A stretch of DNA of 63,188 nt, filler included, from Octopus bimaculoides (Eukaryota), in NCBI RefSeq assembly GCF_001194135.2. It is 7 parts of 6 records of this genome, joined end to end, with 100 filler letters (N's around TTAATTAATTAA, not from the genome) between each part and the next. Parts side by side here need not be neighbours in the genome. Positions count along the whole stretch, not along the records: positions 1 to 16,749 come from NC_068998.1; positions 16,850 to 25,173 come from NC_068982.1; positions 25,274 to 43,113 come from NC_068990.1; positions 43,214 to 53,589 come from NC_069008.1; positions 53,690 to 58,459 come from NC_068982.1; positions 58,560 to 60,839 come from NC_068985.1; positions 60,940 to 63,188 come from NC_068984.1. One strand, given 5' to 3'. The notes beneath the pieces were generated by a model that searched no databases, was not told the DNA's origin, and worked only from the letters and a program-made list of their open reading frames with translations. This document shows positions 4,505 to 62,876 of the stretch, one piece after another (the stretch's first letter is position 1; every line of letters begins with the position of its first letter). A program made the position numbers and the translations under genes.

Positions 4505-4800
4505 TGTTAGATGAATTATTTGCATTATTTACATTTGACGGATATTTGTCCTTATTTTGTTTGTTGTTAGCACACTGTTTCGGCTGATATACCTTCCAGC
4601 CTTCATCAGGTGTCTTGGGGAAATTTCGAACCTGGGTTCTCATTCCTATGGTATTTTTCAATATAATAATAATAATAATTATTATTATTACTATTATTAT
4701 TCAAGTTACTGCCTGGAATTGAACTTGGAATCTTGGGGTTAGTAGCCTGCACTCTTAACCACTATGCCATATGCGCATGGACATATGTTAGATGAATTAT
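4505..4800 (-). mobile_element. Composite element: tRNA-like head + (AAT)n + PLE-type tail with hammerhead motif
   Basis: Minus strand A-box TGGCATAGTGG (4769-4759), B-box-like AAGTTCAATTCC (4726-4715), tail shared with 13221-13500; 15-bp direct repeat tgttagatgaattat at 4505-4519 and 4786-4800. Confidence 0.7.
4569..4614 (-). ncRNA. Degenerate type I hammerhead ribozyme motif
   Basis: GACAC-CTGATGA-A-GGCTG-gaaggtatat-CAGCC-GAAA-CAGT-GTGCT; core and stem II intact, cleavage triplet mutated. Confidence 0.65.
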
Positions 4801-5020
4801 ACGTATTAACAGTTTCTAATTTTGGCAATGTCAGTGGGAGGGGTAAGTCAGTTACATCGACATCAGTAATCGACCCCAAAAGGATGAAATGCAAAGTTGA
4901 CCTCAGCAGAATTTAAACTCATGTTGTTAAGCAATTTTCCCAGTCTGCTATCACCTCTGCCAACTGGCCCCCTTAATTATAGTTAAATGGTAAGCTTCAT
5001 CTGTTTCCATTTTTTTACAG

Positions 5021-5094
5021 CACCTCCTGGTGTTTGGGTATCTTTAGCAGAGGATATTCTTTTGGAAGCGTTCAGACCAAGTACCTCTTTCTAA
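5021..5094 (+). CDS. Candidate terminal exon, unknown product
   Basis: Strong acceptor ctgtttccatttttttacag|; phase 1 frame (A)PPGVWVSLAEDILLEAFRPSTSF*, phase-compatible with 3032-3085. Other frames are also partly open. Confidence 0.25.
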
Positions 5095-5271
5095 CCTGGG
5101 GACAATTCAGTATTTTGATGCAGTGATTCTTACTCCAGTTAAATCTGAGTTTAAGATTCAACATTCTTTTTGATCAGTCAATCTTACTCTTCAAAAAGGT
5201 TGAGGTTACTGCCCTTCTGCTTTTGACTAGGCTCTGAAAAAAAAAAAAAAAACTTATGATGCATATGAATG

Positions 5272-5976
5272 CAAGCGTGGCTGTGTGGTAAGAAGCTTGC
5301 TTCCCAAGCACATGGTTCCAGGTTCAGTCTCATTACTAGGCAAGTGTGTCTTTTACTATAATCTTGCGTTGACTGAAAAAGCTTTGAGTGGATTTGGTAG
5401 ACAGAAATTGAAACAAGATTGACAACCAGTGTTGATGTGTTTATGTCCTGATAACTTAACAGTTTGGCAAATGATAGACTAAGTACCAGGAGTGGCTGTG
5501 TGGTCAGTAGCTTGCTTACCAACCACATGGTTCTGGGTTCAGTCCCACTGCGTGGCACCTTGGGCAAGTGTCTTCTACTATAGCCTCGGGCCGACCAAAG
5601 CCTTGTGAGTGAATTTGGTAGACAGAAACTGAAAGAAGCCCATCATATATATGTATATATATATATATGTATGTGTGTTTGTGTGTCTGTGTTTGTCCCC
5701 CCACCATCGCTTGACAACCGATGCTGGTGTGTTTATGTCCCCGTAACTTAGCGGTTCGGCAAAAAGGGACCAATAGAATAAGTACTAGGCTTACAAAGAA
5801 TAAGTCCTGGGGTCGATTTTCTCGACTAAAGGTGGTGCTCCAGCCTGGCCACAGTCAAATGGCTGAAACAAGTAAAAGAGAGTAAAAGAGCAAAGAGGTC
5901 GATTCAGTCAACTAAAAATTCTTCAAGGCACTGCCCCAACTTAACCACAGTCAAATGACTGAAACAAGTAAAAGAG
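5272..5976 (+). mobile_element. Nested SINE family B: younger full copy (5488-5890) inside an older copy (5272-5487 + 5895-5976)
   Basis: A-box tggctgtgtgg, B-box ggttcagtccc, tail gactgaaacaagtaaaagag; the outer copy carries the extra aaaattcttc segment. Confidence 0.85.
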
Positions 5977-6601
5977 AATTAATTGGACCAAAAATAATTG
6001 AACACAAAAATATTTTAGAGGCAATGCTAAGCCACTGTTGTTGACAATAATTTTATAAAATTATCCATTATTGATCAAGTTTAAATCAAATTTAACCCAT
6101 ATTTCTTATGCATAACACTGGCTTTGTTAATTTTACATTCAAATGATCTGAAGAGAAAAATCATGGTTGACACACACTCAAGAAACACATGTATGAACAA
6201 CTGTATTTTGGGTGTGAATGAATCTTATGCAGTGTTCTTTTTTTTATTTTGTCTTGTAAAATTCTTTGAGAAAAGTGCCTAATATTGATTTTTTACAATA
6301 TTGTTCTCACAGTGATAAATGTATAATTTTCATCCAAATTGACCATGCCAATTTTGCATCATAATTGCAGACTTCACCCAATTTTTCAACACCCCCCCCC
6401 ACCACCACTCATCCAGTGTCAATTATGGAAACACCTCGTATATATTAGTATGAAGTTTTAACGAGAATAATGTGTAGATAGATGGTGAATATCAAAATAA
6501 AGAGAATATGTTCCTGTGTGCTTGTGTGCATCTGTGAAACGTAAGTGGGCTACGAAAAGAAGAGGGTTATCGTTAAAATTCATGCATGTATATATAGTTT
6601 A

Positions 6602-6931
6602 GGAGTGTGGTTAAGTCATTATGGTTATTCAGCTCATGACTGTGAAGTTGTGAGTTCAATTCCCAATGGTATGTTATAACCTTTTACAAAGCACTTTATT
6701 TCATGTTGCTCCATTCCACTTCGAATGCAAAATAAATTTGTACCAGTAATTCAAAGCGCCAGCCTTGTCACATTTGGTGCAGTGTGCTCAATCTATTTGA
6801 GAAGTACATTAGGGGTACATGTGTCTAAGGAATGCTCAGCCGCTTGCACAGTAATTTAACAAGCAGGTTGTTCCAGTGTTCGTAGAAAATGGAACACTTG
6901 TCACCATAATCAAGGGAGAGCCGGTCCGTAC
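6602..6931 (+). mobile_element. Degenerate SINE family D
   Basis: tRNA-like head (gagttcaattccc) and body ggaatgctcagccgcttgcac...gttgttcc; related inverted pieces at about 49215-49330 and 55230-55380. Confidence 0.55.
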
Positions 6932-7192
6932 NNNNNNNNNNNNNNNNNNNNNNNNNNNNNNNNNNNNNNNNNNNNNNNNNNNNNNNNNNNNNNNNNNNNN
7001 NNNNNNNNNNNNNNNNNNNNNNNNNNNNNNNNNNNNNNNNNNNNNNNNNNNNNNNNNNNNNNNNNNNNNNNNNNNNNNNNNNNNNNNNNNNNNNNNNNNN
7101 NNNNNNNNNNNNNNNNNNNNNNNNNNNNNNNNNNNNNNNNNNTATATACATATATATATATATATATATATATATGTACACACAAACACACA

Positions 7193-7617
7193 TTCTTTTA
7201 TTTGTTTCAGTCCTTTGAATGCAGCCATGTTGGAGTACAGCCTTTAGTCGAACAAATCGACCCCAGGATTTATTCCTTGCAAGCATAGCACTTATTCTAT
7301 CAGTCTCTTTGGTTGAACCACTAAGTTACGGGGACATAAACACACCAACATCGATTGTCAAGCAATGGTAGGTAGACAAACACAGACACACTAACATATA
7401 CATACATACTTACATACATATACATACATACATACATACATACATACATATACATATATATGATGGGCTTCTTTTAGTCTCCATCTACCAAATCTACTCA
7501 CAAGGCTTTGATCAGCCTGAAGCTATAGGAGAAGACACTTGCCCGAAGTGACATGCAGTGGGACTGAACCTGGAACCATGTGGTTTGTAAGCAAGCTACT
7601 TACCACACGGCCACTCC
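7193..7617 (-). mobile_element. SINE family B, full length
   Basis: Reverse complement of the 5488-5890 consensus with internal (TACA)n. Confidence 0.85.
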
Positions 7618-60839: not shown

Positions 60840-60989
60840 NNNNNNNNNNNNNNNNNNNNNNNNNNNNNNNNNNNNNNNNNNNNTTAATTAATTAANNNNN
60901 NNNNNNNNNNNNNNNNNNNNNNNNNNNNNNNNNNNNNNNTAGGAGTAATAATAAAAAAAATTATGATCATAGATATACTCGTAATAATG

Positions 60990-61270
60990 TCATGCGTAAT
61001 TCTATATGTTTTAGGTATTTTGCAAAAGGCTTTAATAATATTAATGATGGTTATCTTTGGTTTATTTTACCATTTGGTAAAAATGTTAAGTCGAATTTGG
61101 TAGCTCAGTTTAGGGAGGTAATTAGTAAGCATTTCCCTGCAAATTCGCGTTACGGTAAAATTATTAATACGCGTAGTGTTAGGTTTGGTTTTTCCAATAC
61201 TAAGAACCTAGAGCAGATTATTGCAGCACATAATTCTAAAGTTCTTAAGACAGGCATGAATGGAATGAAT
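60990..61270 (+). mobile_element. Penelope-like RT-to-GIY-YIG linker fragment
   Basis: WFILPFGKNVKSNLVAQFREVISKHFP....KIINTRSVRFGFSNTKNLEQIIAAHNSKVL. Confidence 0.75.
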
Positions 61271-62082
61271 AGGGATGAGGACCCTCACTTAGGTAATAAT
61301 ATATATATATATGTGTATATACATATATACACATAAATATATATACATATACAGACCCAATCCATCACTGAATCTGTAAATATCTCTAAAACTTTGCAGA
61401 AGTTTATCATTTAAGTATATATGAGCATGTCTAGATATGCCACTATATAAAGCAAAATATGCAAAGAAAGCAAAATATGCAATAAAGCAAAATATAAAGC
61501 AAAACATGCAAATCTGCACATATACATACATACATACATACATGCATACATACATCATACAAAAATACCTTGTTGGTGTTGAAATTCCAATGAANNNNNN
61601 NNNNNNNNNNNNNNNNNNNNNNNNNNNNNNNNNNNNNNNNNNNNNNNNNNNNNNNNNNNNNNNNNNNNNNNNNNNNNNNNNNNNNNNNNNNNNNTTGATG
61701 TTAGTATTAATATCATTGCTATTCCTTTTCGTAGTTGAAGTATATGTATTATTAGTTGTATCGGTTATAATATAATTAGTATTCGTAGTACCAGTGTGCC
61801 TATTAGTGTTTGCGTCGATTTTACCCTACCTTCTCCTAGTTTCTCATCCTCTCTCTTATCTTCTCAGCCACCCCATACACAATTCTTTGTCACTATACAT
61901 CTATGCACCTTACTTTCTGCTGTAGCCAATCCTTAAAATCCGCCCCCACTCATTCTGTCTACCTCGCTTTCTATTTCTTTTCTTTTCTTTACTTTTACCA
62001 CTTAATAGCCACCTCCACTACCATTCTGTGATTGAACGTCGATATGCTCGTGTCGTTTTTCTTGGGATGTCTACTTTATCAT

Positions 62083-62190
62083 AGTGGAGGCGCAATGGTC
62101 CGGTGGTTAGGGCAGTGGACTCGCGGTCATAGGATCGCGGTTTCGATTCCTAGACCGGGCATTGTGAGTGTTTATTGAGCAAAAACAACT
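62083..62190 (+). mobile_element. tRNA-derived SINE head
   Basis: A-box tggtccggtgg, B-box gtttcgattcc; no acceptor stem or CCA, continues into SINE body. Confidence 0.65.
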
Positions 62191-62280
62191 ACTTTATCAT
62201 GATTTTAACCCACATCATGGATTTATGCAAGATTGCACCTAATGACTCATGCTCTGGTTTCTATAACTTCAGAAAGTTGA

Positions 62281-62697
62281 ACTCTTTACTCTTTTACTTG
62301 TTTCAGTCATTTGACTGTGGCCATGCTGGAGCACCGCCTTTTAGTCGAGCAAATCGACCCCAGGACTTATTCTTTGGCAGCCTAGTACTTATTCTATCGT
62401 TCTCTTTTGCCGATACGCCAAGTTACGGGGACGTAAACACACCACCATCGGTTGTCAAGCGATATTGGGGGGACAAACACAGACACAGAAACATATACAC
62501 ACACATACATATATATATATATATATATATATATACGACGAGCTTCTTTCAGTTTCCGTCTACCAAATCCACTCACAAGGCTTTGGTCGGCCCGAGGCTA
62601 TAGTAGAAGACACTTGCCCAAGGTGCCACGCAGTGGGACTGAACCCGAACCATGTGGTTCGTAAGCAAGCTACTTACCACACAGCCACTCCGACGCC
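62281..62697 (-). mobile_element. SINE family B, full length, young
   Basis: Near-consensus with CpGs intact. Confidence 0.9.
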
Positions 62698-62820
62698 TAT
62701 GAACGTTTATGCTTCTTTTTTCTTCTTTCTTTCCATCTCCTTATTTTTTTTACTCCCTTTCTCTATGTCTTCATCTTATTAATATATACCATTCTCATTT
62801 TGCCTATTTTTTGCCTATTT

Positions 62821-62876
62821 GTCTCTGATGACGGTATATCCCATATTCGAGGATATCCCAGAAACAGCAGTAAGAT
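62821..62876 (+). ncRNA. Near-intact type I hammerhead ribozyme motif
   Basis: GTCT-CTGATGA(62825-62831)-C-GG-T-ATATCC-catattcga-GGATAT-C-CC-A-GAAA(62861-62864)-CAGCAG-TA-AGAT; GUA cleavage triplet, 4-bp stem I. Confidence 0.7.

Follow-up and report, generated by a model that had tools for sequence, protein, structure and literature searches.

A window of 63,188 nucleotides of the Octopus bimaculoides genome (the whole stretch analysed: seven parts of six records of NCBI RefSeq assembly GCF_001194135.2, joined end to end) carries eight dispersed motifs that are probably minimal type I hammerhead ribozyme folds derived from the 3′ pseudo-terminal repeats of Penelope-like elements (PLEs) of several families, three of them lying in a short element, here termed family A, which has a transfer RNA (tRNA)-like head and would have been copied by PLE proteins. 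The PLE origin of the motifs is very likely; that family A is a tRNA short interspersed nuclear element (SINE) mobilised by PLEs is a view we hold with a slight preference, and the fuller version of it, in which family A is a true tRNA-derived SINE with a PLE as partner instead of a long interspersed nuclear element (LINE), present in tens of thousands to over 100,000 copies across several octopus-like species, appears evenly balanced. The case is carried by features that can be seen directly, namely the anatomy of the motifs, target duplications, an inverted pair of truncated copies of which only one carries a tail, and, for two motifs, PLE coding remnants that precede them.

Named by the position of core nucleotide C3, the accepted motifs are 4609(-), 13314(-), 13398(+), 25600(-), 30697(+), 37116(-), 47210(+) and 62825(+), that is, eight motifs from seven insertions and six families, with 4609, 13314 and 13398 making up family A. 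The initial annotation, made from the sequence alone, had proposed at least six motifs from several unrelated families, but those it placed at 4569, 13274 and 13393 belong to one family, and the latter two to one insertion. The cores it gave at these three positions and at 47206 and 62821 are confirmed, with C3 at 4609, 13314, 13398, 47210 and 62825, respectively. At 25487 the GAAA and helix III end is present, but the core itself lies at 25600(-), beyond a helix II of 97 nt; there is indeed a weak motif at 30700, but the register first proposed pairs poorly and C3 = 30697 (CUGCUGA) fits better. The list was also incomplete, as 37116(-) had been overlooked.

The stretch is AT-rich and full of microsatellites and gaps, with 57.8 kb of called sequence, and chance matches in such repetitive DNA were assessed by dinucleotide shuffles in 300-nt blocks. 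Bare CUGANGA...GAAA cores number 17, compared to 5.3 ± 2.3 in shuffles, which means that approximately 5 of the 17 are expected by chance; cores with a perfect helix II of at least 5 bp number three, compared to 0.08, and none of 300 shuffles reached three. A composite score built on helices I–III, with a hit defined as a score of at least 20, gave nine matches compared to a mean of 1.34 and a maximum of 5 among 200 shuffles, so that the predicted excess of motif density over shuffled sequence is found, and eight matches compared to 1.18 (maximum 4 in 60 shuffles) when helix II was limited to at most 40 nt and A6C was permitted. The strict full descriptor has a single match, 37116(-), with 0.02 expected from shuffles. 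Because the composite score was designed only once the matches were known, and because family A, whose repeats are not preserved by shuffling, weighs threefold in the counts, the margin of enrichment is overstated, but it is still large. Together with the PLE coding context and the conserved core of family A described below, it refutes chance for the motif set, an explanation that hardly deserves belief as a whole and is possible for 25600 alone. Two of the nine scored matches are doubtful and probably due to chance, viz. 9551, which is without a helix II, and 47238, which reads the 47210 hairpin on the other strand; 9551(-), 47238(-), 33928(+) and the remaining bare cores were not accepted. 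As a separate observation, 9510-9557(-) combines an intact core, a 5-bp palindromic helix III and a 6-bp helix I with a missing helix II, and is possibly a heavily decayed ninth motif. Rfam gave no hammerhead match in the window at gathering threshold, and the best 150 of 266 rows by E-value were nearly all microsatellite-driven microRNA artefacts. A microsatellite or gap lies within 250 nt of all five motifs outside family A, compared to 36% of random sites, which is suggestive, and nothing is built on it here.

The published consensus of PLE hammerheads comprises CUGANGAH, a G10.1–C11.1 pair, GAAA, a short palindrome and an NUH cleavage triplet (PMC4209133), and the anatomy of the motifs fits it, in agreement with the initial assignment to PLE-type minimal type I hammerheads of several families. 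The core CUGANGA (or its U3:A8 variant) with GAAA is present in seven of the eight motifs, the exception being 30697, with A6C and a changed A15.1. An extra base after A9 and the G10.1–C11.1 pair occur in family A, 37116 and 30697; 25600 has A–U at this pair, and 47210 and 62825 have a mismatch there. A short or palindromic helix III with A15.1–U16.1 and an NUH triplet is found in 37116 (AUC), in 47210 and 62825 (both GUA) and in the family A majority sequence (ACGU, GUU), and the copies at 4609, 13314, 13398, 25600 and 30697 each have a broken helix III. Helix I has 3–6 bp in six of the eight copies, is interrupted in 13314 and is absent in 25600. Overall, 7/8 motifs are damaged, the core, helix III or a closing pair being altered in each, leaving 37116 as the sole intact one. 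Published PLE motifs offer some close parallels: the CGU-U ending of the family A majority occurs in 15 of 56, including both Lottia motifs, and U3:A8 in 2 of 56, with A6C in 0 of 56, while the helix III of 47210 resembles that of a Hydra Poseidon motif and the helix III of 62825 that of the Saccoglossus motif.

A connection to PLEs is provided by coding remnants. The intact-looking minimal hammerhead at 37081..37122(-), with C3 at 37116, is a U3:A8 variant with an extra A, G10.1–C11.1, an AUAU palindrome, an AUC triplet and a 6-bp helix I, and lies approximately 340 nt downstream, on the same strand, of a PLE GIY-YIG endonuclease remnant at 37455..37673(-), identified by tblastn and by Pfam (E 2.4e-4), where the score of 21.8 bits is slightly below the cut-off of 22.6. 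A second motif belongs to a 5′-truncated PLE remnant at 29170..30820(+), in which an inverted tail copy (29186-29229, 80% identical to 30761-30803) is followed by a reverse transcriptase (RT) C-terminus (29229-29569), a GIY-YIG domain (29872-30210), a CT-rich untranslated region, the hammerhead and the tail. The stretch 29229-30210, whose motifs suggest that it is Neptune-like, resembles proteins P0002 and P0003 (tblastn E 9e-21 and 2e-14), which in turn match Pfam GIY-YIG at E 1e-3 and 3e-5. The hammerhead itself (30694..30727(+), C3 at 30697) is a single decayed copy with A6C, an extra A, a 4-bp helix II, a 3-bp helix I and a changed A15.1; in the A6C register, which fits better, it would have PLE-type anatomy and scores 20.6 (shuffle mean for A6C cores, 0.03). 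A6C is known as a natural low-activity variant in a phage hammerhead (PMC3088659).

A third motif, at 62821..62876(+) with C3 at 62825, has a near-palindromic helix III, a GUA triplet and a mismatched helix II closing pair, and follows a CT-rich tract. Judged by strand and order, it may belong with a PLE RT C-terminal remnant at 61052..61285(+), which stands on the same strand 1.5 kb before it, across a gap and two SINEs. This remnant has 916 relatives at E ≤ 1e-3, and the long ones (e.g. P0066 and P0015) show, by inspection, an RT, a cysteine linker and a GIY-YIG-like end; none of the 11 relatives tested was named RT or GIY-YIG by Pfam. Because 30697 and 37116 directly follow PLE RT or GIY-YIG remnants, and this third motif may do so, they are read as PLE terminal-repeat hammerheads of the kind that Cervera and de la Pena reported in 2014. 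The two remaining motifs are a decayed hammerhead with a 97-nt helix II (25481..25604(-), C3 at 25600), in which helix II pairs at 9 of its first 10 positions, U16.1 is lost and helix I is not formed, and a hammerhead at 47206..47260(+) (C3 at 47210) with a 3-bp helix III, a GUA triplet, a 4-bp helix I and a lost helix II closing pair, situated within a piece of approximately 98 bp that interrupts a SINE at its microsatellite. The proposal that the motifs are mostly solo repeats away from coding sequence is thus partly upheld: three lie in the non-coding tRNA-headed element and for two no link was found, but two directly follow PLE coding remnants and one more may.

Among the neighbouring sequences, the window contains an abundant SINE-like family with more than 10 copies on both strands and an internal (CA/TA)n (7423-7620, 28981-29178, 35149-35346, 38370-38567, 45016-45213, 51219-51416, 62498-62695 and others), and copies of it seem to harbour the PLE pieces found at 29170 and 47186 as insertions. 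A second tRNA-like SINE head, unrelated to that of family A, was called by relaxed ARAGORN at 62090-62161, between the RT remnant at 61052 and motif 62825.

The complete form of family A is A1, an element of 266 bp at 4520..4785(-) made up of a tRNA-like head, an (AAT)n tract and, after it, a hammerhead-bearing tail of 140 nt. It lies inside an exact 15-bp direct repeat, the copies of this target-site duplication at 4505..4519(+) and 4786..4800(+) being identical at 15/15 positions, a length reached by 5 of 1070 random window pairs. When contigs from four runs, representing four organisms, were aligned on 4450-4820, depth climbed at approximately 4515 and dropped at approximately 4787 in all four, with mixed loose contig ends at 4515. 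The head (4702..4785(-)) has an A box at 4769-4759, a 7-nt anticodon-like loop at 4745-4739 and a B box with T-loop at 4724-4715; the two boxes stand at tRNA spacing by pattern match to the general A- and B-box consensuses, and the anticodon-like and T-loop patterns were judged by eye only. Majority letters of the contigs at 4720 and 4726 bring the B box nearer to its consensus, and the sense strand of A1 has no run of four T. The hammerhead of A1 (4569..4614(-), C3 at 4609) has changes at G16.2 and U16.1.

The other two copies form a head-to-head pair. A2 (13186..13345(-)) is 5′-truncated and has a 31-nt 3′ extension at 13186-13216, and A3 (13346..13503(+)) is also 5′-truncated and is without the extension. 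Their hammerheads lie at 13274-13319(-) (C3 at 13314, palindrome broken) and 13393-13438(+) (C3 at 13398, U16.1 changed). The three copies are 83–90% identical, and A2 and A3 have in common a two-base variant that is not in A1. A 13-bp direct repeat at 13173..13185(+) and 13504-13516 flanks the pair as its target-site duplication, a length attained by 10 of 1070 random window pairs, and the whole is one event, combining 5′ truncation, an adjoining inverted copy and a tail on A2 only. An independent protein record, P0005, has the same 31-nt extension as A2.

A conventional explanation would be that family A is an ordinary tRNA SINE mobilised by a LINE, which captured a PLE hammerhead as passive cargo. 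Target duplications of 13–15 bp and a short tandem 3′ repeat, which in family A is a 9-nt tandem tail, are common in LINE-driven elements, and such an inverted pair is unlike LINE twin priming. The presence of the same 3′ end in both inverted arms, with the 31-nt extension on only one, is instead the pattern of PLEs (PMC8557442, PMC11167929), and subfamily variants differ within the hammerhead core at N7 only, so that a LINE-mobilised origin is, in our judgement, improbable.

The same contigs bear on abundance. Aligned contig records numbered 22,225, 20,227, 23,971 and 15,121 per run, with coverage limited to the element, and the large genomic population suggested by the initial annotation is thus supported by between 15,121 and 23,971 family A contigs in each run. 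Taken with the contig counts, the two insertions seen in 57.8 kb of called sequence would correspond to tens of thousands of copies, possibly over 100,000, as an indication and not a proper count; summed contig depth divided by single-copy-like depth gives approximately 1.5–2 × 10^5, which is not a copy number, being inflated by overlapping contigs, and serves as an upper-range hint. Pattern scans for family A found none in metagenomes, viral contigs or prokaryote genomes, and five short-pattern metagenome matches were set aside as chance, with only 20–28 bases in agreement. A protein search with a frame across head and tail gave no match.

The majority sequence of the contigs has an ACGU palindrome, A15.1–U16.1, a GUU triplet, a 5-bp helix I and a U at position 17, so that, for family A, consensus pairing and an NUH triplet are both present, and GUU is a permitted cleavage triplet (PMC3138052). 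The palindromic helix III proposed at the outset is intact in this majority, but broken in all three copies in the window. Variants at 10% or more within the motif are confined to N7, loop II, CpG sites and positions where the window copy has a letter of its own, and none falls in C3–A6, G8, A9 or G12–A15.1, a distribution which suggests that source elements kept the hammerhead core while dispersed copies decay. At the palindrome's CpG, as at other CpGs, up to a third of the aligned depth has a changed letter, a figure biased toward the window allele.

Several further observations touch on family A. A second B-box-like stretch lies in its tail at 4620-4640(-), just 5′ of helix I. The 5′ end (4768-4787) forms a short hairpin, with opposite-strand contig joints at 4746-4780, and loose contig ends at 4768-4787 run into an inverted head, a hint of head-to-head doubled copies. 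The whole 3′ part of family A forms an open frame of 41–52 codons, and annotations for two octopus species make it the beginning of host proteins (P0004 and P0006). Elsewhere, 15695-15721 matches 27 bases of the hammerhead region at 85% and lies near a 26-bp tandem array (15755-15967, 8.4 copies).

Considering whether head and tail belong together, a second account is that the tail derives from an autonomous PLE, as its truncated 3′ end, and that the head at 4702-4785 is a short SINE of separate origin, into whose (AAT)n a PLE end came by chance or by targeting. PLEs prefer microsatellites and AT-rich targets (PMC8557442, PMC11167929), the head is missing in two of the three window copies, and the target duplication of the SINE itself would enclose both parts; head depth, at 27–38% of tail depth, or roughly a third, fits 5′ truncation but also two separate families. 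On the other side, the single 15-bp duplication of A1 encloses both head and tail, one X2 contig with a different, non-orthologous flank covers 4601-4771 (head, linker and hammerhead) gapless with 17 differences, and two X1 contigs connect tail and head across deletions. No separate body accompanies the head here, no second head copy was found elsewhere in the window, and the head:tail ratio is alike in four organisms (0.27–0.38). We regard the separate-SINE account as unlikely, and keep to a single family with head and tail.

A number of points nevertheless weigh against the interpretation of the motifs as PLE derivatives, and of family A as a tRNA-headed element copied by PLE proteins. Family-wide head–tail linkage is thin, depending on the three independent contigs just described, as the alignment left out the (AAT)n tract together with any joints or loose ends falling in it, and the low head depth pulls in the same direction. 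The head of A1 was not called a tRNA by relaxed ARAGORN or by Rfam, and the target duplications and tandem tail fit LINE mobilisation too. One protein search found no autonomous PLE with a family A tail, its three matches to the tail being exonised or intergenic copies and not PLEs. Among the other motifs, the interval from 61285 to 62825 yielded no GIY-YIG, and no PLE coding sequence was found near 25600 and 47210.

With these reservations, published PLE biology offers a plausible course of events. The PLE RT/GIY-YIG protein would bind RNA near the hammerhead and nick the DNA, and reverse transcription would begin at one of two sites, approximately 80 or approximately 110–120 nt beyond helix II, giving 5′-truncated 3′ ends with or without the 31-nt tail and, at times, inverted pairs. 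In family A, an internal A/B-box promoter for RNA polymerase III may have taken the place of the PLE coding region, and the element would behave like a SINE with a PLE, rather than a LINE, as its partner. In source elements the hammerhead would cleave only as a dimer or aided by the PLE protein; the expectation for the dispersed copies is that they are inert and in decay.

A function for the copies in this window is likely to be absent. The initial annotation had raised the possibility of active ribozymes that cut host pre-messenger RNAs or release circular RNAs in the manner of retrozymes, and some facts speak for activity: 37116 is intact, the abundance of family A would imply some same-strand neighbours genome-wide, and circular RNAs from tandem hammerhead repeats have been published for mussel, coral and axolotl. 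They are outweighed by the lesions in seven of the eight copies, by the altered palindrome CpG of family A and by the arrangement of the motifs, as no family has a same-strand tandem partner in the window, none of the motifs lies in a tandem array, and RNA transcribed through A2/A3 would, by prediction, fold as one long duplex (-177 kcal/mol). Nor was a host exon found by Pfam among 142 open frames. Cervera and de la Pena (2014, PMC4209133) reported that monomers of minimal PLE hammerheads are inactive in vitro and dimers weakly active, and in Anolis the PAc hammerhead cleaves only with the PLE protein and is dispensable for in vitro insertion, with RNA-seq ends absent from the site (PMC11167929). 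Activity of this kind in the dispersed copies is, on balance, very improbable, and their reading as decaying PLE derivatives is preferred.

The rest of the window is occupied by other mobile element remains. The 142 open frames contained mariner-type transposase pieces and a zinc knuckle in Pfam. Tc1/mariner-type remnants lie at 57542-58059, 38656-38880 and 32320-32997 (Pfam Transposase_1 at E 1.7e-7 and 1.8e-3, DDE_3 at E 1e-3, and the helix-turn-helix domain DUF4817 at E 6e-3), and a decayed open reading frame (ORF) at 60130-60839 bears a zinc knuckle of the CCHC type (Pfam E 1.5e-4), resembles LINE ORF1 and has a 54-bp tandem duplication upstream at 59871-59984. A LINE-like remnant at 19402-21400 has an inverted segment and a 178-aa frame without a Pfam match, presumably akin to the N-terminus of R4/Dong or RTE-type elements, and ends in (ATA)n and (TAACCC)4 at 21400-21519. 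Six 12-base islands flanked by 44-N runs (16794-16805, 25218-25229, 43158-43169, 53634-53645, 58504-58515 and 60884-60895) are likely spacers and not biology.

Dispersed minimal PLE hammerheads being already known, the presence of the motifs is ordinary save for the host group and the density; it is family A that would be of wider importance. If the reading is true, SINE parasitism reaches beyond LINEs to the third class of retroelements, and family A represents a natural minimal RNA of approximately 110–150 nt that is enough for PLE mobilisation. The need for the hammerhead in PLE copying would also become testable, because an element with no other gain from the fold has kept the core uniform while amplifying; the in vitro work on PAc says it is dispensable (PMC11167929). 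Family A would further rank among the most abundant ribozyme-motif families of any animal genome, and would help to sort the SINE families of octopus, of which 893 of the 900 recently active in O. vulgaris are, as published, unclassified.

Set beside known systems, the dispersed motifs are an established phenomenon in a host group not covered in the literature found. Genomes with thousands of minimal hammerheads, of many families and mostly single, have been described and attributed to probably truncated PLEs (PMC4209133), with 4,000–9,000 per genome as the largest counts quoted. Core, 3–6-bp helix I, palindromic helix III and the U3:A8 variant are common to that set and to the octopus motifs, as are, for family A, 37116 and 30697, the extra base after A9 and G10.1–C11.1, and as are many families of mostly single dispersed motifs with some opposite-strand pairs 100–700 bp apart; in contrast, the 56 motifs there include no cephalopod, no A6C and no helix II near 97 nt. 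A bare label ‘SINEs’ stands beside a Drosophila willistoni family in its Fig. S5, no description of a tRNA head having been found there, and short non-autonomous Penelope elements are mentioned in butterflies (PMC6685494). Inverted 5′-truncated copies and a 30–40-bp tail at one end only are hallmarks of PLEs (PMC8557442), and Poseidon PAc of Anolis (Frangieh et al. 2024, PMC11167929) has a similar optional 30–40-bp tail, with two internal RT starts downstream of the hammerhead; PAc, however, is an autonomous element arranged in tandem, and family A a non-coding one of 266 bp with a tRNA-like head.

The schistosome Sm-alpha and Sj-alpha repeats (PMC6765202) also unite a promoter of the RNA polymerase III type with a type I hammerhead in a short non-coding repeat, but they are tandem, canonical and multimer-cutting, whereas family A is dispersed and of the minimal type, with target duplications and PLE tails and inversions. 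Animal retrozymes of the type without long terminal repeats (PMC7229834; 10.64898/2026.07.22.740005) are likewise non-coding, carry type I hammerheads and have been proposed as non-autonomous PLE derivatives; unlike family A, with its tRNA-like head and absence of tandem units here, they are tandem repeats giving circular RNAs (PMC7229834). With tRNA SINEs, including OK, OR1 and OR2 of octopus (Ohshima and Okada 1994, via PMC4758252), family A has in common an A/B-box head, a body, a short tandem tail, target duplications and very high copy number, and it appears to depart from them in its PLE-type hammerhead tail and PLE-type insertion patterns. No description of a tRNA-headed, hammerhead-tailed element with PLE insertion marks was found in the literature, and it may be catalogued in Repbase, Dfam or SINEBase. 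As far as the sequence can tell, the combination of a tRNA-like head and a PLE hammerhead tail sets family A apart from schistosome alpha repeats, retrozymes and LINE-tailed SINEs alike.

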